Positions 46,280 to 60,988 of a DNA stretch of 64,000 nucleotides are shown one piece after another. The notes beneath the pieces were generated by a model, which was given only the letters and a program-made list of their open reading frames with translations, made no database searches and was not told the origin of the DNA. This stretch comes from Myxococcota bacterium. GTDB lineage: Bacteria; Myxococcota; XYA12-FULL-58-9; JABJBS01. The stretch is from positions 30,611-94,610 of the forward strand of contig JAYZAY010000059.1 of assembly GCA_036339465.1 (NCBI GenBank). Reading direction: 5' to 3'. How positions within the stretch are numbered: position 1 is the stretch's first letter; each line of letters begins with the position of its first letter. A program made the translations under genes and the position numbers.

Positions 46280-47269
46280 TTGGTGCATCTCATGTCGAAC
46301 ACTATTGGGAAAAAATCAAGGGTTGAGGCCACTCCTAATCACTATCGTACAGCCCTCGGGCAGGCGATTGAAGCGGTTAAGAAAGCTGTTTGGGGGAAGG
46401 ATACTTCGATTCATCAGGCATTTGCGACCATTTTAGCGGGTGGCCACCTTCTAATCGAGGATGTTCCAGGGGTTGGAAAGACCACACTGGCTACGGCGCT
46501 GGCCAAGGTGATTGGGGCCGGATTTGGGCGGATCCAGCTAACTTCGGATTTATTACCTTCGGATATTACGGGGATGGTAAGACCGGATTGCACCGGGCAG
46601 CTGAGTTTTGTGCCCGGCCCGATTATGAATCAGGTTGTTTTATTGGATGAGCTCAACCGCGCGTCCCCCAAGACTCAATCTGCGCTCCTCGAAGTCATGG
46701 CGGAGGGAGTGGTGACCGTTGATGGTTTTCGCCATAAAGTGCCTCAGCCATTTGTGGTGATTGCGACCCAAAATCCCTTGGAGCATCACGGAGTTTATCC
46801 GTTGCCGGAGAGCCAGCTCGACCGATTTATGCTTTCGCTGGAGCTGGGTTATCCATCGGTTGATGTTGAAGCGCGCTTGCTGTCTGAGGGCTCTGCGATT
46901 GAAGGTTTTTTATCAGAAATGGCCTCGGTATTAACGCCGGGGATGATGGTCGCGATGCGCTGTGAGGTCGATAGGATTTTCATGGATAAGGATCTGGCGC
47001 AATACGTGGTTCAGATTATGGAGGTAACACGTAATGCGTCTGAGATCGCTTTAGGTTGTTCAACCAGAGCTGCGATGGCCTTGGCCGCCTTGGCCCGCTC
47101 CTCCGCTTGGATGGATGGCCGGGATTACGTCGCTCCCGATGATGTCTATGGTATGTTGATTCCCTCTTTGGCACATCGAATTCGCCTCAATGGTTTGGGG
47201 GCCCAAAGTCTTGAAGACAAACAAAATATTCTCTTCCGTTTGATTAAGACCGTCAGGATACCAAGATAA
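46280..47269 (+). CDS. MoxR-family AAA+ ATPase
   Basis: Walker A GVGKTTLA, Walker B VVLLDELNRASPKTQSALLEVM, typical MoxR C-terminal region. Confidence 0.9.
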   Translation: MVHLMSNTIGKKSRVEATPNHYRTALGQAIEAVKKAVWGKDTSIHQAFATILAGGHLLIEDVPGVGKTTLATALAKVIGAGFGRIQLTSDLLPSDITGMVRPDCTGQLSFVPGPIMNQVVLLDELNRASPKTQSALLEVMAEGVVTVDGFRHKVPQPFVVIATQNPLEHHGVYPLPESQLDRFMLSLELGYPSVDVEARLLSEGSAIEGFLSEMASVLTPGMMVAMRCEVDRIFMDKDLAQYVVQIMEVTRNASEIALGCSTRAAMALAALARSSAWMDGRDYVAPDDVYGMLIPSLAHRIRLNGLGAQSLEDKQNILFRLIKTVRIPR

Positions 47270-47275
47270 ATAGAT

Positions 47276-48355
47276 ATGAGTTTCCTAACAAGATTCTTGT
47301 CTGCTCCTGGTCGCCGCTTGATAGTGCGGAAAGAGGGGAAAACAGCTATGGGGATCTCCCTCTTTGTCGGTCTGGCTGCTGTGAATTCAGGAAACAATCT
47401 CCTCTATCTCGTTTGGGGAATATCCTTGGGGTTAATCTTGGTCTCCGGTGTTATGAGTGAAATGACACTGCGGAAAATTATCATGGAAATAGATAATGCT
47501 CCCATCGCTAGGGTGGGGCGTGAAGTTTCTTTACGGTTTAGTCTTTTTAACCCCTCGAAATATTGGACTTGTTTTTCGGTTGGGGTGGAGATCCTTCTGC
47601 GTGAAAAAAACCAGGAGGAGCACCGGATCGCAACTTGGGAATCAAGTATCAGTCCAGAAGCGAAAATGACTTGTTATTTGGATACTTCGTTCAACGAGCG
47701 AGGGTGTTTTACGTTGGAAAGGGTTGCGTTTTCGACGGCTTTCCCTTTTGGCTTCTTTATCAAGGAACGGTTTTTTGGTTTCTCAACTGGTTATGAGGTC
47801 TTGGTGGCCCCGCAGTCTTATCGATATTGCGGAGAGAGGCGGTCTTTATCTGGATTAGAGGAGGTTTCAGATATCCCCCAACGAGGGATAGGGGCCGATT
47901 TTTGGGGGCTTAGGTTGTATCGAGATGGCGATGACATTCGTTGGGTCCACTGGAAAAAAACGATGCAATTGGGGCGCTTTGTGATTCGTGAATTTGCGCG
48001 TGATGTTGGTGGTGCGGTTTGGCTGAGTTGGGACCCCTTGGATACCCACGCCTCGAATTTTAAAATGGAAAAGGTTGTCGCTTTGGTTTGTGGCTTCACT
48101 GAATACTTGTATCTAAATGATATTTTGTCGGGTTTTTCTCTTCCTGGCATATCTTGTCGTTTTGAGTCACATGGGAAAGATGTTTATCAGCTACTTCGCG
48201 TTTTCGCTCAATTGGACCCCTCTGCCCCGACGAGGAGAGAGTCATTTTCCAGCAATATTTCGATTTTGCATATTGGCACTGAGATTAAGGACAATACCAC
48301 CGGGCATTTCATCGATATAGGCCTGCTCGACGAAATGATGGAACCAAATATATGA
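47276..48355 (+). CDS. DUF58-domain protein (MoxR-associated, vWA-like)
   Basis: Two N-terminal TM helices. DUF58 motif (YRDGDDIRWVHWKKTMQLGRFVIREF). It sits between the MoxR and transglutaminase genes. Confidence 0.75.
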   Translation: MSFLTRFLSAPGRRLIVRKEGKTAMGISLFVGLAAVNSGNNLLYLVWGISLGLILVSGVMSEMTLRKIIMEIDNAPIARVGREVSLRFSLFNPSKYWTCFSVGVEILLREKNQEEHRIATWESSISPEAKMTCYLDTSFNERGCFTLERVAFSTAFPFGFFIKERFFGFSTGYEVLVAPQSYRYCGERRSLSGLEEVSDIPQRGIGADFWGLRLYRDGDDIRWVHWKKTMQLGRFVIREFARDVGGAVWLSWDPLDTHASNFKMEKVVALVCGFTEYLYLNDILSGFSLPGISCRFESHGKDVYQLLRVFAQLDPSAPTRRESFSSNISILHIGTEIKDNTTGHFIDIGLLDEMMEPNI

Positions 48356-50427
48356 GCACGAACTTATGGCTCTATGGTTCTCTTTACCTGAATGCTTTTC
48401 TCGGGATTTGTGCGGTTGTTTTGTCTGCTGGTGTTCCGGACGCCTACGAACTTTTGATGATCGGTCCGTTGATGGGATTTTGGATGCGGAGAAAAGGGGT
48501 TCACGCACATTCATGGATTGGTGTGGTTTTAGGCGTTGTGGGTTTTTTCGGGGGCAGTATGACACTTGTGCAATTCGGCGTTCAGGACATTGGTAGGGCT
48601 TTTGCTGAATCTGTCCTATGGCTTTTACTGGGACGAATGGTTACGGCAGATAGCGTGAGGCACGATTATCAGGTGCTTCTCTTAAGTTGCGGGCTAATCT
48701 TGCTTGGAGGGGTGCTTAATTTTGATTTAAGTTACGGTGTCTTTTTGGCCCTCTATACGGTGTTGCTCATTTGGACCCTGGTTGCCCTGCATTTTGAGAC
48801 GTCGAATTCAGGAATTGAAGGTTCTGGTGCCAATGGAGGCGCGTCTGCTGAGTATTCCGAAAATATGTCTTGGACCTTGGCTGGCTATTTAACGCTTATA
48901 TCGGTGGTGGTGTTTATGGTTGCGGGGAGTGTCTTTGTGGGTTTCCCTCGTTTTGGAAGTCCTGCATGGGGATTTCTACGGGGCAAGTCCGTCAATATGA
49001 AAGAGGATGTTTCTCTCAAGCAATCATTCCTAGATCCAAGTGAGGACAATTATGTGTTGGGCCGGGTCTACGGTTTGGATGAAATGATATTTTCTAAGGG
49101 ACTTTACTTGAGAGGGAGTATTTATGACCGGATATCACCCATTGGGTTTAGCAGGAGCCCCGCCTCGATTTTTCGCTCTTTTGGATCTGCTGGTCGGATG
49201 AAACGTAAGTTGGCAAGAGACGAGTACGAATATGAGGTGTACGCTCAGCCGACATTGTCGCGGGCGTTATTTGTGTTGGGGGAACCTTCAATGGTTCAAT
49301 TTCTAAAATACGGTGTTAAAGGGGGTGTGAGTCGTCTCGGGTGGAAAGAGGGTGTGTTTGGAGAGATTGAGAGTACCGAAGCTTTAATTGCGCCGGTCAA
49401 GTATGGTGTTAGAGGAGAGATTTTTGCCAATGGTGACGTACTTGGCTCATTAGGGGATCAGGTGTGTCTGTCGAATCCTTCTTGTCCTTTCTTAAACCAT
49501 CACCGTGTCATTTCGGAAGCGTCAAAGAATCTTGTTCAACCGATTATCGAAGAGCAAGATCTCGAAGCGCAGAGTCCCGAAGTGATAGTCAAAAAGGTGA
49601 TCGCGTTTTTGAATCGATATTTTGTGTATTCACTGGAATCAGAGAATCGAAAATCTTCGGAGCCGCGGAGGTCTTTCCTTTTTGAGAATCGGACTGGGCA
49701 TTGTGAGTATTTCGCTCTTTCTCTGGTCACCATTTTACGGGCCCTTGAAATACCGAGTCGTATCGTGGGTGGATATTATGGCGGCAGTTGGGATGGGGAA
49801 GACAACATTGTTGTTTTTATGGGCAGAGATGCTCATGTCTGGGTAGAATGGTTGGATGAAGAGGGGCATTGGCACTTGGCTGATCCAACGGTTGCGGGCG
49901 ACCAAGGCTTGATTACTTTGAGCGGAAGCGAGTATCTCATTGAAAAGATGAGGCGTTATTGGGACGAGTATATCCTTGATTTTGGGATTGGGAATCAGGT
50001 CTCTATGTTGGAGATGGGCAGTGATTGGTTAGGAGATTCTAAGACCTACTTGGACGGAGCGAAAGAAAAAATACCCGCTCTTCTTATGTGGAGTGTTGTT
50101 GTAGGATTGATGGCAATTGCTTTTTGGGTCGTGGTCAATAATGTTGGTTTGTCACAGGAAAAAAGATTACGACGTCATTTAGAATCCTTTATCGGACGCA
50201 GGTTGGGACGGCCATTGTTACCCCATGAGAGTTTTCTAAATTTGGCACAATCTGAAGAAATGCAACGAAACCTGGGCGCCACAGCCCAAAAACGACTCAT
50301 TGCTTTACTCAAGGATTTTGAGGAAATATCTTATGGCGATGATGTGGCCGATAAGGAAAGCCTTGTTGGGTGGCGCCGAAAATTTATGGATTGGTCGAGG
50401 CAGAATCGGGGCCGGCACTCCGTTTAA
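48352..50427 (+). CDS. Transglutaminase-like membrane protein (DUF3488 + TGc core, TgpA-like)
   Basis: Multiple N-terminal TM helices. Transglutaminase core Cys-His-Asp with NRTGHCEYFALSLVTILRALEIPSRIVGGYYGG and HVWVEWLDEEGHWHLADPT. Start overlaps DUF58 stop (ATGA). Confidence 0.85.
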   Translation: MSTNLWLYGSLYLNAFLGICAVVLSAGVPDAYELLMIGPLMGFWMRRKGVHAHSWIGVVLGVVGFFGGSMTLVQFGVQDIGRAFAESVLWLLLGRMVTADSVRHDYQVLLLSCGLILLGGVLNFDLSYGVFLALYTVLLIWTLVALHFETSNSGIEGSGANGGASAEYSENMSWTLAGYLTLISVVVFMVAGSVFVGFPRFGSPAWGFLRGKSVNMKEDVSLKQSFLDPSEDNYVLGRVYGLDEMIFSKGLYLRGSIYDRISPIGFSRSPASIFRSFGSAGRMKRKLARDEYEYEVYAQPTLSRALFVLGEPSMVQFLKYGVKGGVSRLGWKEGVFGEIESTEALIAPVKYGVRGEIFANGDVLGSLGDQVCLSNPSCPFLNHHRVISEASKNLVQPIIEEQDLEAQSPEVIVKKVIAFLNRYFVYSLESENRKSSEPRRSFLFENRTGHCEYFALSLVTILRALEIPSRIVGGYYGGSWDGEDNIVVFMGRDAHVWVEWLDEEGHWHLADPTVAGDQGLITLSGSEYLIEKMRRYWDEYILDFGIGNQVSMLEMGSDWLGDSKTYLDGAKEKIPALLMWSVVVGLMAIAFWVVVNNVGLSQEKRLRRHLESFIGRRLGRPLLPHESFLNLAQSEEMQRNLGATAQKRLIALLKDFEEISYGDDVADKESLVGWRRKFMDWSRQNRGRHSV

Positions 50428-55862: not shown

Positions 55863-56855
55863 ATGCCTTCCCCACTGATTCGAAGAGCGATTTCAATTTT
55901 CACTGTGGTCACCGCTTTTGGGGTGATCCTCATGACGGGGCCCCTGTTGCTTTTGATAGCGGTGGGTGTGGATTTTCTCATGAATCGGGAAAAATTTCCC
56001 CGAAGCCGGTTTGTGGTGTTCATCGCTTGGTTTCTTTTTTGCGAGTTGGGGGGAGTGGTGTGTGCTTTGGTGATTGGCGGACTTTGCTTTTTTCCAGGGA
56101 CCTCAGAAAAGACGTACGTCGCGTGGAATTTAGCTTTGCAGCGATGGTGGTCTGGTTCAATATTCTCTGGGTTGAAACGTATTTTTTCGCTCAAGATGGA
56201 GGTTGAAGGGGTGGAGGCGACAGCCGAGGGGCCCCTGGTTGTGCTGACCCGCCATGTGAGCAGCGCCGACAGTCTTTTGCCTTCGGCACTGGTCGCCAAT
56301 CGCTATCACCATAATCTCAGATTCGTCATGAAGGAAAGCCTACAATGGGACCCATGTTTGGATATTGTGGGAAACCGATTGCCCAATGCCTTCATTCCCA
56401 GGAATACGAGAGGCTCCCCTCAAGCCCTGCGCGCCATTGAAAAGGTGGGAATGGATCTCGACTCCTCATCGGGCGTGGTGATTTTTCCCGAAGGCACGAG
56501 ATTCACGCGGAGTAAGCTTGAGGTCTTGCGGACAACTTACACCAAGGGTTCCGGGCGGGCCGATCCCCATCTCTATGAACACGTGTTGCCGCCAAAGTTT
56601 GGAGGTACGGTGGCTCTATTGAAGACCGCCATTGACGCGGATATTGTTTTTTGCGCCCACACTGGTTTGGAGGCGGTGGGCAATATTTGGGATTTGGTCT
56701 GTGGTGATTTGATTCATCGTACCATTCGTATCCGTTTCTGGCGCGTCTCCCGGGCTGAGGTACCTGTGGATGAAGAGGCGCTCCTAAATTGGTTGGTGCA
56801 ATCTTGGAAAACGCTCGATAGGGCTGTGGGGCACTTGCTGAGCCTGGGGGAATAA
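55863..56855 (+). CDS. Membrane-bound PlsC-family (lysophospholipid) acyltransferase
   Basis: Three N-terminal TM helices, then the HX4D acyltransferase motif (TRHVSSADSLL) and a downstream FPEGTRF motif. Confidence 0.7.
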   Translation: MPSPLIRRAISIFTVVTAFGVILMTGPLLLLIAVGVDFLMNREKFPRSRFVVFIAWFLFCELGGVVCALVIGGLCFFPGTSEKTYVAWNLALQRWWSGSIFSGLKRIFSLKMEVEGVEATAEGPLVVLTRHVSSADSLLPSALVANRYHHNLRFVMKESLQWDPCLDIVGNRLPNAFIPRNTRGSPQALRAIEKVGMDLDSSSGVVIFPEGTRFTRSKLEVLRTTYTKGSGRADPHLYEHVLPPKFGGTVALLKTAIDADIVFCAHTGLEAVGNIWDLVCGDLIHRTIRIRFWRVSRAEVPVDEEALLNWLVQSWKTLDRAVGHLLSLGE

Positions 56856-56872
56856 AGTTAAGTGAAGAAGAC

Positions 56873-57691
56873 ATGGATATAACTGCGATGATTGAAAATA
56901 TGAACGCTGTGTGGGAGCAGGCCGCGGGGCCGGCAGGCATGTGGGTGCTCGGTAGTATGACGCTTCTCTGGCTGGTTAGTTTGCCCCTGCGGGACGCGAG
57001 CATTGCCGATCTTTATTGGGGATTTGGGTATTGCATGGTGGCGGCTTTGGGGCTCCATGCTTTGGAGCAACCTCTTTTTCGGCATTGGGTTCTTGTGGCT
57101 TTGGTGGTGATTTGGGGTATGCGACTTAGCCTCTATTTAGCGATTCGCAATATCGGCCACGGTGAGGATTTTAGGTATCGGGCTTTTCGGCGTCATTGGG
57201 GGGATAAATATCCTTTCGTGAGTTTTCTCCAGACCTTCATGCTTCAGGGTTGTTTGGTCCTTATTATTTCGTTACCGGTACAAGCTGGCCTTGTTTCCAC
57301 CGCTCCGGGATTTGGACTGGTTTCCATATTGGGCTGTGTGGTGTGGGGCATTGGTTTTTTCTTTGAAGCTGTGGGCGACGCTCAACTTCGGGCTTTTAAG
57401 AAAGACCCCACCAACAAAGGCAAAATCATGCGTACGGGGTTGTGGCGCTACACCCGCCACCCCAACTATTTTGGCGATACCTGCATTTGGTATGGGGTTT
57501 ATTTGGTGGCCTGTGGTGGCGGCGGAGCGTGGTGGACTTTGCCAGGACCTTTTCTGATGATGTTCTTTCTTTTGCGGGTCTCAGGGGTGCCCATGCTTGA
57601 GCATACCATGTCGAAACGGCCTGGCTACGATGATTATGTAGCGACCACCAGCGTATTTTTCCCCTTACCGCCCAAGAAGGTCACCCAATAG
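56873..57691 (+). CDS. DUF1295 / ICMT-PEMT-like membrane methyltransferase-reductase family protein
   Basis: Polytopic membrane protein. C-terminal signature GLWRYTRHPNYFGD...LLRVSGVPMLE typical of the isoprenylcysteine carboxyl methyltransferase / steroid 5-alpha-reductase-like (DUF1295) superfamily. Confidence 0.65.
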   Translation: MDITAMIENMNAVWEQAAGPAGMWVLGSMTLLWLVSLPLRDASIADLYWGFGYCMVAALGLHALEQPLFRHWVLVALVVIWGMRLSLYLAIRNIGHGEDFRYRAFRRHWGDKYPFVSFLQTFMLQGCLVLIISLPVQAGLVSTAPGFGLVSILGCVVWGIGFFFEAVGDAQLRAFKKDPTNKGKIMRTGLWRYTRHPNYFGDTCIWYGVYLVACGGGGAWWTLPGPFLMMFFLLRVSGVPMLEHTMSKRPGYDDYVATTSVFFPLPPKKVTQ

Positions 57692-57805
57692 GAAGTGATC
57701 GATTCCCTGCTTGCTTATATTGGGATGCCCAAATAAACCAAGGCTGCGTAAAACCACAATCCATTCTAGGATTGAGCTGATATAGCTTAGGAAGGTATAA
57801 AAACG

Positions 57806-58768
57806 TTGACCATCCGATTTGCACAGATTGAGCCCACCACACGGTGCAATTTCACCTGTGGATTTTGTACTGGCCGAAAGATGTCCCAAGGAGATCTCTC
57901 CCTTGATAGTTTCCGAAGGATTCTCGAGTTGCACCCTCAATTAGAGCATATCGAACTTCAGGGGGAGGGGGAGCCTCTTCTCAACAAGAACTTTGTTCAG
58001 ATGCTTGAACTGGCCCGAGAAAGAAATATCCGTGTTTCTCTGATCACCAACGGAAGTTTACTAACCACCGAAATGATTGATGCGATCCTACGCCTCGAAG
58101 TGATGAGCATTCATTGTTCAATGGAGTCGGCGGAGCCTCGAATGTTTCGAGAGATCAGAGGAGGTAAACTGGAAAAAGTAAGAAAGGGTCTCATGTTGCT
58201 CGTCAAGGAGCGAAATAAGAGAGGTCTTAAGTTTCCAACCATTGGGCTTGCCGTTACGGTTCTACGAAAAACAGTTGATGCTATGCCGGGTATGATTGAG
58301 CTTTATGGTGAGATGGGCCTCGATGCGGGGATCTTTGTCCAGCCCTTACAAAAGATGGCTGTCTACACACGTGCCTATGATGAGGATATGAAACGCCAGC
58401 TTCTCAGCCACGAGGATTTACACGCCTACAACAATACCTTGCGCGGAATGGATGGGTTGCAATCAATCCTCAGAAACAAGAAAAATATTTCGTCGTTTTA
58501 TCGTGCCTTGGGCAAAAGTATCCAGCCCGGTGAGTCGGGGTGCCCATGGCTTTTGCACGGTACCTATATCAATTACGCTGGCGACGTGATGCCTTGCTGC
58601 ACCATCAAGGATACGACGCTGTCTGGTTTGGGCCATATTCGTAACACGCCGCTTTCAAAACTCGACGAAGGCCGCAGAAAAATGAATCAACAGATTGTTG
58701 AAGGGGCTATCCCGATGGCTTGTGAAGGATGCGGAATTGCAAATAAATTCCAGCGAAAAAAAACATAA
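57806..58768 (+). CDS. Radical SAM protein with C-terminal SPASM/twitch-like Cys cluster
   Basis: TTG start. CxxxCxxC (TTRCNFTCGFCTGR), GGEPLL, and C-terminal CPW...MPCCT...CEGCGI. 320 aa. Confidence 0.8.
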   Translation: MTIRFAQIEPTTRCNFTCGFCTGRKMSQGDLSLDSFRRILELHPQLEHIELQGEGEPLLNKNFVQMLELARERNIRVSLITNGSLLTTEMIDAILRLEVMSIHCSMESAEPRMFREIRGGKLEKVRKGLMLLVKERNKRGLKFPTIGLAVTVLRKTVDAMPGMIELYGEMGLDAGIFVQPLQKMAVYTRAYDEDMKRQLLSHEDLHAYNNTLRGMDGLQSILRNKKNISSFYRALGKSIQPGESGCPWLLHGTYINYAGDVMPCCTIKDTTLSGLGHIRNTPLSKLDEGRRKMNQQIVEGAIPMACEGCGIANKFQRKKT

Positions 58769-58801: not shown

Positions 58802-59749
58802 TCAGTGTATCCCCATGGGCACCCACCCTGGGGCGGGCAGCCTAAAGGTCGCAATTTTCCCTCTTGGATATTCCAAACTCAAACACCAGGCGTGAAGGCA
58901 GAGTTTGTGTTTGCCCGTGACCATTTCAGGAGCATCGTTGGCCTCCAACCCATAACCTGTGTCCCCCACGATTGGATGGCCCACGTGATTGGCGTGGATT
59001 CGGATTTGATTGGTACGGCCTGTGACTGGTTGCGCCATCAAGATGGACTCGTTTTTGGGTAGGGATGCTACCCAGGTGAAGTGGGTTAGGGCTTCCACCC
59101 CAAACCTCTCCGACACCTCTCGCCGTCCGTGTTTGCCTGGTTTGTTCTCGATGCGGGCGTCCACCGAAAAGCGCAGTGCTTGGGGATACCCTCGTACTTT
59201 TAGTAAATAGGCTTTTTTCACCGCTCGGCGTTGAAATTGTCCCTGGATGAAGCGGGCCGTTTCTTTGTCTTTGGTCAATACCTGAATGCCGCTGGTATCG
59301 GCATCCAAGCGGTGGGCCGGCAGGAATTTCTCTCCAGGGCAGACAGCTTCCAAGAGTCGCACCAGGGTGTGTTTCTCGAATCTGCCACTGGGGTGGACTG
59401 GCAAGGGCGCTGGTTTGGCGACCACGACCACCCTTTCGTCTTCGAAGAGCACCCGAATGTCTGGCGAGATGAGTGGCTCGGTTATTTGGCGTTTGGTGTA
59501 GTAGACGATGGCTCCGGCGCCGATGGGGGTATCCAAGGCGCATTTCCGGTGATCGACCTCCAGGTCTCCGGCGGCATAGGCTTCTACCCAGCGTTCGTTT
59601 GGTATGTGGGGGCAGAGGGCCTGCAAGCAGGTGAGCACCGTTTTCCCGTGGAGTCGACCTGGCACTCGAATCATACGGGTGCCATCGTGGGCTGTGGCTC
59701 CGGGTTGGGTCTGGGCTAAGGCCCGAACTTTGGCTTCCAGTTCGCTCAT
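58802..59749 (-). CDS. RluA-family pseudouridine synthase
   Basis: Catalytic motif HRLDADTSGIQVLTKD. S4-like N-terminus. ~315 aa. Confidence 0.8.
   Translation of the reverse strand: MSELEAKVRALAQTQPGATAHDGTRMIRVPGRLHGKTVLTCLQALCPHIPNERWVEAYAAGDLEVDHRKCALDTPIGAGAIVYYTKRQITEPLISPDIRVLFEDERVVVVAKPAPLPVHPSGRFEKHTLVRLLEAVCPGEKFLPAHRLDADTSGIQVLTKDKETARFIQGQFQRRAVKKAYLLKVRGYPQALRFSVDARIENKPGKHGRREVSERFGVEALTHFTWVASLPKNESILMAQPVTGRTNQIRIHANHVGHPIVGDTGYGLEANDAPEMVTGKHKLCLHAWCLSLEYPRGKIATFRLPAPGWVPMGIH

Positions 59750-59773: not shown

Positions 59774-60988
<1,215 letters not shown>

Follow-up and report, generated by a model that had tools for sequence, protein, structure and literature searches.

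Organization of the locus

Three genes follow one another on the plus strand between positions 55863 and 58768 of the window (the whole 64,000-nt stretch of DNA analysed here), encoding an acyltransferase (AT), a DUF1295 protein and a radical SAM (rSAM) protein (Table 1). All three ORFs were found where the preliminary description had placed them, and its domain assignments (acyltransferase, DUF1295-like, radical SAM) are borne out by the Pfam matches. The AT stop codon and the DUF1295 start codon are separated by 17 nt. In the longer gap that precedes the rSAM gene no promoter-like or terminator-like site was predicted on the plus strand, so co-transcription of the genes is possible in the source organism; the same leader exhibits no riboswitch (Rfam E-value scan) and no stable RNA structure (fold z-score -0.18). 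The locus is bounded by a convergent gene of the RluA family (PF00849, 90 bits; TIGR00005, 185 bits, slightly below the cutoff of 192.7), which we do not regard as a member. Annotation of the region at 39–51 kb in the window revealed only housekeeping or unrelated genes.

Table 1. Features of the locus (positions refer to the window)
Feature	Position	Strand	Size	Basis or remark
AT gene, PlsC/LPLAT-type membrane acyltransferase	55863..56855	+	330 aa	PF01553 and motifs
DUF1295 gene, polytopic membrane protein of the steroid-reductase/PEMT/ICMT-like superfamily	56873..57691	+	272 aa	PF06966, RHPNYFGD
Leader between the DUF1295 and rSAM genes	57692..57805	+	114 nt	
Shine-Dalgarno-like AGGAAGG	57789..57795	+		10 nt 5' of the TTG start; read from the sequence
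rSAM gene, stand-alone radical SAM enzyme, putatively of Twitch type	57806..58768	+	320 aa	TTG start
CX3CX2C (C14, C18, C21), radical SAM [4Fe-4S] motif	57845..57868	+		sequence and family alignment
Predicted Twitch-like auxiliary-cluster domain, C246-x12-G259-x4-C264-C265-x40-C306-x2-C309	58541..58732	+		family alignment
RluA-family pseudouridine synthase gene, convergent; locus boundary, not a member	58802..59749	-		PF00849, TIGR00005

Start codon of the rSAM gene

The TTG codon at the beginning of the rSAM gene is the sole start that retains the CX3CX2C motif, because an in-frame TAG occurs at 57788, six codons 5' of it; the ORF does open only with TTG, as had been noticed from the sequence, and the spacing of the putative ribosome-binding site agrees with this start (Table 1). 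The TTG is kept in relatives that exhibit 62% and 69% identity (L083 and L048, respectively), where purine-rich Shine-Dalgarno-like elements are found 8–10 nt 5' of it and where the CX3CX2C motif likewise lies 5' of the ATG used by the gene callers. Truncation by automated callers, which the preliminary description had anticipated, has indeed occurred: in identical public metagenome contigs the gene is called from M26, yielding a protein of 295 aa that has lost the CX3CX2C motif, and the gene calls of the closest relatives (P0002–P0006) begin in the same way. Public callers truncate the gene because it starts with TTG, and for an entire clade of the family the public database entries are N-terminally truncated and lack the catalytic motif. 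Such entries would escape or mislead motif-based surveys of radical SAM proteins; the practical value of this observation lies mainly in the correction of annotation for an otherwise ordinary orphan enzyme.

Domain architecture of the rSAM protein

The rSAM protein is confidently placed in the radical SAM superfamily (PF04055, 64.1 bits, gathering threshold 29.5), and the C14-x3-C18-x2-C21 motif is nearly invariant in the alignment of its family (A1). As judged from the motif, these three residues would ligate the [4Fe-4S] cluster by which SAM is cleaved to give the 5'-deoxyadenosyl radical. The C-terminal part exhibits the motifs CPW (246–248), PCC (263–265) and CEGCG (306–310), whose five Cys residues (C246, C264, C265, C306 and C309, spaced C-x12-G-x4-CC-x40-CxxC) are invariant in the same alignment. 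Secondary structure prediction suggests a β-hairpin at 252–262 (strands 252–255 and 260–262) and an α-helix at 283–298, followed by C306-x2-C309, i.e. the α2' topology; the chain ends 11 residues past C309 and the CX5CX3C element is absent. According to the definitions of SPASM and Twitch domains that we adopted (PMC6231123, PMC9012708), the former possesses seven Cys residues arranged as CX9-15GX4C-gap-CX2CX5CX3C-gap-C (PMC6231123). The SPASM-like Cys cluster of the preliminary description is real as far as the Cys motifs and the Pfam model are concerned (PF13186, 24.5 bits, gathering threshold 21.5), but it does not amount to a full SPASM domain sensu stricto, with two auxiliary clusters, since only five of the seven necessary Cys residues are conserved and the NCBIfam SPASM model is not reached (TIGR04085, 14 bits, cutoff 27). 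The best model for the C-terminal region is that of a Twitch domain (NF033640), albeit with a weak score of 16 bits, and the Pfam scan revealed nothing beyond Radical_SAM and SPASM. The pattern and the predicted fold fit a Twitch-type domain, i.e. a truncated SPASM with CX9-15GX4C at the β-hairpin and further ligands after α2', which probably binds a single auxiliary cluster. The ligands of this cluster would be C246, C264 or C265, C306 and C309, and it would serve as an electron acceptor or as an anchor for the substrate, as in BtrN and MoaA.

None of the NCBIfam radical SAM equivalogs (the W-cofactor maturase, PqqE, MoaA, AhbD/NirJ, MftC, PapB, HxsB/C and others) was reached, all 25 families listed scoring far below their cutoffs. 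The best match, TIGR04317, covers only the N-terminal 200 residues (114.5 bits, cutoff 380), and the classification that the preliminary description had proposed did not lead to any named housekeeping enzyme.

Comparison with characterized radical SAM enzymes

BtrN, the 2-deoxy-scyllo-inosamine dehydrogenase of butirosin biosynthesis, is the archetypal Twitch radical SAM enzyme, and together with MoaA it provides the documented examples of this type. BlsE is a cytosylglucuronate decarboxylase and, like DesII, AbmM and MoaA, acts on sugars or nucleotides. In BtrN, one Cys precedes the β-hairpin, another follows it (GX4C) and a CxxC motif is found after α2', together giving a fully ligated auxiliary [4Fe-4S] cluster (PMC6231123). 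The rSAM protein resembles BtrN in this layout of C-terminal Cys residues, hairpin and α2', in the position of the CX3CX2C motif near the N-terminus and in the lack of an N-terminal RRE, but the two proteins share only about 20% identity. The rSAM protein is also longer by ~50 residues, with a helical region inserted at 185–240, and it possesses an additional invariant Cys (C265) and an invariant Lys (K268); unlike in BtrN, no aminoglycoside cluster surrounds its gene.

BlsE, DesII, AbmM and MoaA are similar in size to the rSAM protein (about 320–360 aa), but the sequence match is confined to the first ~120 residues, the MoaA equivalog is not reached (49 bits, cutoff 284), and neither nucleoside-antibiotic nor Moco genes are present nearby. 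The peptide- and protein-modifying SPASM/Twitch enzymes SuiB, SkfB, CteB and anSME exhibit 15–19% identity to the rSAM protein. SuiB, SkfB and CteB possess an RRE domain and SuiB, CteB and anSME the second auxiliary-cluster motif, CX2CX5CX3C...C, both of which are missing from the rSAM protein, and its locus contains neither a precursor nor a sulfatase partner.

The rSAM family and its genomic neighborhood

Searches revealed 761 representative clusters of homologs (E ≤ 1e-30) that bear no family name and are spread over Alpha-, Beta- and Gammaproteobacteria, Myxococcota, Bdellovibrionota-like bacteria, Bacteroidota, Cyanobacteria and Firmicutes; many of the carriers appear to be aerobic. Cultured species with the gene include Sphingomonas tabacisoli, Pelagibius litoralis, Nannocystis pusilla, Chitinophaga qingshengii and Paenibacillus macerans. 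The genes often sit amid housekeeping genes, and BLAST clustering of the neighbors identified no conserved neighbor family above 14 of 55 loci, while a Pfam scan matched 105 immediate neighbors to 101 different families. Conserved synteny was found only within lineages (an ABC transporter and GNAT in Kiloniellaceae, ruvA and ruvC in sphingomonads). Relatives at 62%, 54% and 43–50% identity exhibit unrelated neighbors, and the relative at 69% (L048) has no further gene in common with the window. Glycosyltransferases flank the gene in a minority of loci (GT2-rSAM-GT2 in L049, GT1 in L038, GT25 in L087 and UDPGT in L090), an association that is a raw tally and partly involves distant members (34–39% identity), and one protein (P0280) is an rSAM-GT2 fusion. 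The fusion partners form a mixed set (tandem rSAM, C39-like peptidase, AMP-binding, GT2, methyltransferase) that is no more than suggestive, and a further partner, an IS91 Zn domain, may be an artefact of gene calling.

The AT-DUF1295 pair

The AT protein is a confident member of the PlsC/LPLAT group (PF01553, 50.4 bits, gathering threshold 23) and resembles YihG-like LPLAT/PlsC acyltransferases in its catalytic motifs, HVSSAD (HX4D, residue 131) and FPEGTR (residue 208); none of the NCBIfam equivalogs (PlsC, YihG, OlsA) was reached (TIGR00530, 38 bits, cutoff 103; YihG NF058536, 34.6 bits, cutoff 260; NF052553, 22.6 bits, cutoff 300). The second protein matches the entire PF06966 profile (241.3 bits, cutoff 20.4, positions 1–235 of 235), as do DUF1295/steroid-5-alpha-reductase-like membrane enzymes, and exhibits a partial match to Steroid_dh (36 bits over 67 residues) and a match to PEMT below the cutoff (22.8 bits); no NCBIfam equivalog was reached. 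Its assignment as an ICMT was rejected (PF04140, 22.2 bits, cutoff 24, over 24 residues only), the kinship being at the level of the superfamily.

Homologs of AT were found immediately 5' of DUF1295 genes in several other loci (L175, L179–181, L093, L100 and L108), with a gap of 12 nt in L175 (Acidobacteriota) and 3 nt in L179–181 (Myxococcaceae). The AT identities are 29–41% and the GC content ranges from 48% to 70%. Such recurrence of the adjacency in at least 5 diverged lineages suggests that the pair is probably a lipid-remodelling module. By analogy with the respective superfamilies, AT would most likely acylate a lyso-lipid via its HX4D/EGTR motifs, and the DUF1295 enzyme would most likely reduce or methylate a lipid-like membrane substrate. 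A Chalcone_3 gene often accompanies the pair. Linkage with Chalcone_3 together with light-regulator genes was also observed, and our literature search found no description of it; in Myxococcaceae, such a locus comprises genes for a CarH-like regulator, Chalcone_3, AT and DUF1295.

Relationship between the rSAM gene and the AT-DUF1295 pair

The preliminary description had presented the three genes as one cluster. Searches with the AT and DUF1295 proteins against 80 rSAM-related loci (tblastn) returned no match, neither gene was found near rSAM relatives in about 60 rSAM-anchored loci, and conversely the rSAM gene was absent from all 80 DUF1295-anchored loci (49 of them with >1 kb of downstream sequence) and from all 5 AT-anchored contexts. 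The three-gene region is repeated only in identical contigs of the same organism, which stop short of the AT gene. Comparative synteny therefore does not support a functional cluster in which the rSAM gene would be linked to the two membrane-enzyme genes 5' of it. We consider it likely that the locus consists of two unrelated units adjacent by happenstance, a recurrent AT-DUF1295 module and an independently placed, stand-alone rSAM gene of the Twitch type. Adjacency in a single genome is a poor ground for assigning the enzyme a role in lipid or RiPP metabolism.

Alternative functions for the rSAM protein

It could be proposed that the three genes form a lineage-specific operon, in which the rSAM protein would modify a membrane lipid produced or remodelled by AT and DUF1295, possibly by C-C coupling, methylation-independent cross-linking or acyl dehydrogenation, in the manner of the archaeal Tes. 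The shared strand, the intergenic distances (17 and 114 nt) and the lack of predicted plus-strand promoter or terminator sites in the longer gap agree with such an arrangement, as does a homolog from Chitinophaga flanked by an Acyl_transf_1 protein and a 3-hydroxyacyl-CoA dehydrogenase, and the top single-sequence match in the PDB (phmmer, 27 bits) is indeed a lipid-modifying enzyme, the GDGT/MAS synthase 7tol. However, this match is restricted to the N-terminal core and in the profile search falls to 22.9 bits, under BlsE, MoaA and BtrN, so the identification as a Tes-like enzyme was rejected; the GC content of the rSAM gene (0.475) is slightly lower than that of its neighbors (0.51–0.57), other phyla possess the AT-DUF1295 pair without any rSAM gene, and the complete lack of co-occurrence reported above makes the operon quite improbable. 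The lipid substrate contemplated in the preliminary description had its basis in adjacency in one genome only.

The rSAM protein might also be a maturase of RiPPs or proteins that acts in trans on a precursor from another genomic locus, or on a peptide that needs no leader; anSME, which acts on sulfatases, likewise lacks an RRE. Consistent with this possibility, a homolog from Nannocystis resides in a RiPP-like YcaO/PhyH/JmjC/GT cluster with a 44-aa ORF, and two relatives are a fusion with a BtrH_N/C39-like peptidase domain (P0269) and a tandem rSAM-SPASM protein (P0241). On the other hand, the CX3CX2C motif begins already at residue 14, leaving no place for an N-terminal (PqqD-like) RRE, a single auxiliary cluster is predicted, no RiPP-maturase or anSME model of NCBIfam comes near its cutoff, and the family has no conserved neighbor and occurs in housekeeping contexts such as the interval between ruvA and ruvC in Sphingomonas. 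The search for a precursor was negative as well: the sole ORF in the gap upstream of the rSAM gene encodes 24 aa from a TTG start (57711–57785) and is not a credible precursor, the 33-nt gap downstream contains no ORF, and clustering of ORFs of 15–90 aa within 700 nt of family members in 68 loci identified no conserved one, yielding only Arg/Pro-rich shadow ORFs of high-GC genomes. The preliminary description was correct in seeing no precursor peptide here, and its suggestion that the substrate is encoded elsewhere holds; a role as a maturase we consider unlikely. Still less credible is a prokaryotic viperin-like (pVip) antiviral enzyme producing chain-terminating nucleotides: the PADLOC pVip models score 61 and 51 bits and the NCBIfam model viperin_w_prok (NF038283) 48.7 bits, but the former matches span only residues 11–124, i.e. 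the generic SAM-binding core, of a 257-position profile, the latter is far below its cutoff of 180, the family possesses the invariant five-Cys Twitch domain, and the window offers no defence-island context, so this reading is effectively refuted.

Possible substrate of the rSAM family

For an rSAM protein that stands apart from the AT-DUF1295 module, there are weak hints of a sugar or nucleotide-type small molecule as the substrate rather than a peptide or lipid, namely the ranking of BlsE, MoaA, BtrN and AbmM above SkfB and PqqE in the PDB profile search (BlsE 42.7, MoaA 40.4, AbmM 35.8 and DesII 28.6 bits), the lack of an RRE, and the glycosyltransferases among neighbors and fusion partners. 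The PDB matches are limited to the N-terminal SAM-binding core of ~120 residues and therefore say little about the substrate. Our tentative guess would be that the enzyme performs a two-electron oxidation, or a radical rearrangement related to it, on a small molecule such as a sugar or nucleotide-sugar whose synthesis is encoded elsewhere in the genome. A bolder scenario, which appears doubtful, would be that the family modifies a glycoconjugate, nucleotide-sugar or trans-encoded macromolecule by an undescribed but broadly conserved radical reaction and that, separately, Chalcone_3, AT and DUF1295 constitute a lipid-remodelling pathway responding to light or photooxidative stress. If true, the former would add a new functional class to the Twitch enzymes. 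Finding the substrate of the family would add a chemistry to the Twitch subclass, while the AT-DUF1295(-Chalcone_3) pairing offers a testable handle on DUF1295, for which our literature search found no report of a bacterial function. The fungal ene-reductase UsgR possesses a conserved domain whose similarity to DUF1295 has been described (PMC8597850).

Genomic context of the radical SAM gene

The PlsC-type acyltransferase (AT), the DUF1295 membrane enzyme and the radical SAM protein (rSAM) are encoded by three ORFs, found exactly where the preliminary description had placed them. The linkage between these genes was examined from three anchors, rSAM, DUF1295 and AT. The rSAM-anchored GTDB scan returned 80 loci (approximately 55 true family members, 38–50% identity) from Kiloniellaceae/Pelagibius, Myxococcota, Sphingomonas, Chitinophaga, Cellvibrionaceae, a cyanobacterium and Paenibacillus, and tblastn detected no match to AT or DUF1295 in any of the 80. 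The rSAM gene was found near DUF1295 in none of 80 metagenome loci (37–54% identity; 49 with >1 kb downstream) and near AT in none of 5 sampled contexts. Thus, no anchor reveals a conserved linkage, and the proposal that the three genes form one cluster is not supported.

The 62% rSAM relative is accompanied by a carboxylesterase and hypothetical proteins, the 54% relative by a GT25 glycosyltransferase, and the 69% Bdellovibrionales relative shares no gene with the window besides rSAM. The more distant members from Nannocystis, Pelagibius and Sphingomonas are surrounded by a YcaO/PhyH/JmjC/UDPGT cluster, by an amino-acid ABC transporter and GNAT, and by ruvA/ruvC, respectively. Clustering of neighbours within 5 kb revealed no family in more than 14 of the 55 rSAM loci, the most frequent one (14/55) being a generic ABC ATPase, while the immediate neighbours (n=105) matched 101 different Pfam families. 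At the level of sequence context these comparisons demonstrate that what looks like a cluster of three genes is a juxtaposition, and rSAM is probably a stand-alone enzyme of the Twitch type (the shortened, one-auxiliary-cluster form of SPASM), unlinked to its neighbours. The GC content of the rSAM gene (0.475, GC3 0.514) is lower than that of the flanking genes (0.51–0.57, GC3 0.53–0.64), a slight indication that its evolutionary history was separate.

Coordinates of the features discussed (window positions, or positions within the named homologous locus)
Feature	Location	Strand	Remarks
AT, 330 aa	55863-56855	+	PF01553 50.4 bits (GA 23); HVSSAD at residue 131, FPEGTR at residue 208
DUF1295, 272 aa	56873-57691	+	whole-profile match 241 bits; partial Steroid_dh; PEMT and ICMT sub-threshold
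rSAM, 320 aa	57806-58768	+	Radical_SAM 64 bits; Pfam SPASM 24.5 bits (threshold 21.5, barely exceeded)
AT-family locus, window (AT and DUF1295)	55863-57691		
AT/Chalcone_3/DUF1295 loci, L179-L181	2843-5417		
AT-family locus, L176	2947-4496		
AT-family locus, L174	20-6018		
AT-family locus, L175	4001-5842		
RiPP-like string, L090	2696-8984		Nannocystis pusilla CP185339.1
MoxR/DUF58-like/TgpA-like trio	46280-50427	+	
MreB, N-terminal stretch	59792-59866		GTG 59792
MreB, public call, L081	2298-3419		373 aa

Translation start of rSAM

The suspicion that the rSAM ORF opens only with TTG, and that gene callers would truncate it, proved justified. An in-frame TAG lies upstream at 57788, TTG 57806 is the sole start that retains C14-x3-C18-x2-C21, and AGGAAGG is located 10 nt 5' of it. 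Metagenome contigs of identical sequence (from JGI 3300009103 and from an ENA assembly) have the protein called as 295 aa starting at M26, and its closest relatives (P0002-P0006) are 294–306 aa long, with query coverage of 90–92%. The 62% and 69% relatives (L083 and L048) both carry TTG in frame at the corresponding site, ahead of an intact CX3CX2C and 8–10 nt 3' of an SD-like element. As these three features coincide in all three sequences, TTG is their true, conserved start, and this clade is miscalled in public data. Many matches to the family profile begin at position 27 or 32 (e.g. P0294, P0295, P0297, P0302-P0304, P0310); such entries and P0001-P0006 are stored from a conserved Met 3' of CX3CX2C, hence without the catalytic motif, as is, judging from these matches, a sizeable fraction of the family in public protein sets.

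Classification of rSAM

No named NCBIfam equivalog was approached by rSAM; the best, TIGR04317, scored 114 bits against 380, over the N-terminal 200 residues only. A pVip identity was rejected because the matches were partial and core-only. The exhaustive profile search delineated 761 representative clusters at E<=1e-30, with a generic radical SAM background of 67,236 matches at E<=1e-3, which by profile criteria makes this a sizeable, distinct and unnamed family. An alignment of 22 sequences revealed invariant Q28, D30, H48, QGEGE (52–56), NGS (82–84) and SxES (105–108), followed in the C-terminal part by C246-P-W, G259, C264, C265, K268, P303, C306 and C309, i.e. C-x12-G-x4-CC-x40-CxxC, with the protein end 11 residues further on.

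SPASM domains bind two clusters and have the signature CX9-15GX4C-gap-CX2CX5CX3C-gap-C, whereas Twitch is a truncated version for a single cluster; BtrN ligates its cluster through one Cys on each side of the β-hairpin and two Cys beyond α2' (PMC6231123; PMC9012708). The AF2 model of rSAM (pLDDT 90.7, pTM 0.89), with a hairpin at 252–262 and a long helix at 283–298, reproduces this BtrN layout. The C-terminal domain had been described as SPASM-like, and the Pfam match is marginal; the curated SPASM model TIGR04085 stays below its cutoff (14 bits vs 27), and among the models matching this domain a Twitch one scores best. Based on the Cys pattern, the modeled hairpin and helix and these two profile results, rSAM is classified as Twitch-type, not SPASM, with one predicted auxiliary cluster and an extra invariant Cys, C265. 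Orphan families abound among radical SAM enzymes, and rSAM represents a new, uncharacterised one within the well-known SPASM/Twitch group; the useful results are a correction of the start to TTG for a clade whose public database entries are truncated, the Twitch assignment, and the resolution of the three-gene "cluster" as a juxtaposition.

Members of one subgroup (P0359, P0361, P0364, P0365, P0373, P0375, P0377; ~470–540 aa) carry an N-terminal extension of ~165–200 aa with no Pfam match and, in several, CPxC-type Cys pairs. This extension, absent from the window rSAM, could be a substrate-recognition domain.

Possible substrates of rSAM

Judging from motifs and fold, SAM would be cleaved at the C14/C18/C21 cluster, the 5'-deoxyadenosyl radical would abstract a substrate H atom, and the predicted auxiliary cluster would take up an electron or anchor the substrate. 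As described previously, no precursor peptide is visible: neither gap flanking rSAM contains a credible ORF, and no small ORF is conserved beside the family in 68 loci. Together with the lack of an RRE (RiPP recognition element) in rSAM, whose CX3CX2C begins already at residue 14, this argues against a cis-encoded peptide substrate. No riboswitch was found in the rSAM leader, which is structured no more than shuffled sequence (fold z = -0.18).

The PDB profile search placed BlsE (42.7 bits), MoaA, BtrN and AbmM above SkfB and PqqE, on the SAM-binding core only. Across phyla no functional theme recurs among rSAM neighbours as much as glycosyltransferases (GT2-rSAM-GT2 in Paenibacillus, GT1 in the cyanobacterium, GT25 and UDPGT in others), and in one family member rSAM is fused to GT2. 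The ranking and the glycosyltransferases are weak hints of a sugar or nucleotide-type small-molecule substrate, and we tentatively suggest that rSAM oxidises or rearranges, in the manner of BtrN/BlsE, a small molecule produced elsewhere. A peptide or natural-product role is possible in view of the remaining fusions (AMP-binding, methyltransferase, C39-like peptidase, tandem rSAM) and of the RiPP-like context in Nannocystis. The strongest rival, a trans-acting RiPP or protein maturase, draws on that context and on the peptidase and tandem fusions, and we regard it as unlikely. Or perhaps AT, DUF1295 and rSAM could constitute a lineage-specific lipid operon? The gap before rSAM yielded neither a promoter nor a terminator on the + strand, so this is conceivable at the transcript level; however, comparative support is nil and the similarity to Tes is confined to the core, which leaves such an operon very improbable.

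In L090 an rSAM family member ends a YcaO-PhyH-JmjC-(44-aa ORF)-UDPGT string, downstream of which lie a Frankia_peptide-like ORF and nitroreductase, JmjC and sulfotransferase genes; its gene content suggests a biosynthetic cluster of RiPP-like type, as yet uncharacterised.

The AT-DUF1295 pair and other features of the window

AT and DUF1295, which in the window begin 20 nt after nth, recur as a pair across lineages: AT is directly followed by DUF1295 in an Acidobacteriota MAG (12-nt gap), in Myxococcaceae (3-nt gap) and in three metagenome loci, including L093 (4-nt overlap). AT identities of 29–41% and GC contents from 48% to 70% indicate that these loci are independent lineages. The AT family is also accompanied by a Chalcone_3 gene (PF16036; fatty-acid-binding-like) and, in one genome (L174), by CMAS, SDR, Polyketide_cyc2 and lipocalin genes. 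The recurrent pairing and these lipid-type neighbours make a lipid-remodelling module plausible, its inferred chemistry being LPLAT acyl transfer plus the reductase or methyltransferase chemistry of the DUF1295 superfamily. In Myxococcaceae a gene for a MerR/B12-binding (CarH/LitR-like) regulator points away from a sigma70-Chalcone_3-AT-DUF1295 operon, in divergent orientation. A DUF1295-like domain has been described in the fungal ene-reductase UsgR (PMC8597850), and DUF1295 is listed among singlet-oxygen-induced genes of Chlamydomonas (PMC4067076). Chalcone_3-AT-DUF1295 may be a light- or photooxidative-stress lipid module, a side lead in which the pair is recurrent but also uncharacterised.

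The top neighbour of DUF1295 relatives (cluster 4, loci L093-L172) is a protein of ~280 aa, encoded in 24 of 78 loci and in 20 of these 24 on the upstream side, with a median gap of ~50 nt. Its sequence looks like a DegV-type fatty-acid-binding protein, which, if correct, would add further lipid context for DUF1295.

The mechanical MreB ORF comprises 398 aa, its public counterpart on an identical contig being shorter, and the first ~25 residues of the 398-aa form are probably untranslated. Elsewhere in the window, a MoxR AAA+ ATPase (AAA_3), a weak DUF58-like protein and a TgpA-like transglutaminase membrane protein are encoded by a tight trio, whose starts and stops abut or overlap.
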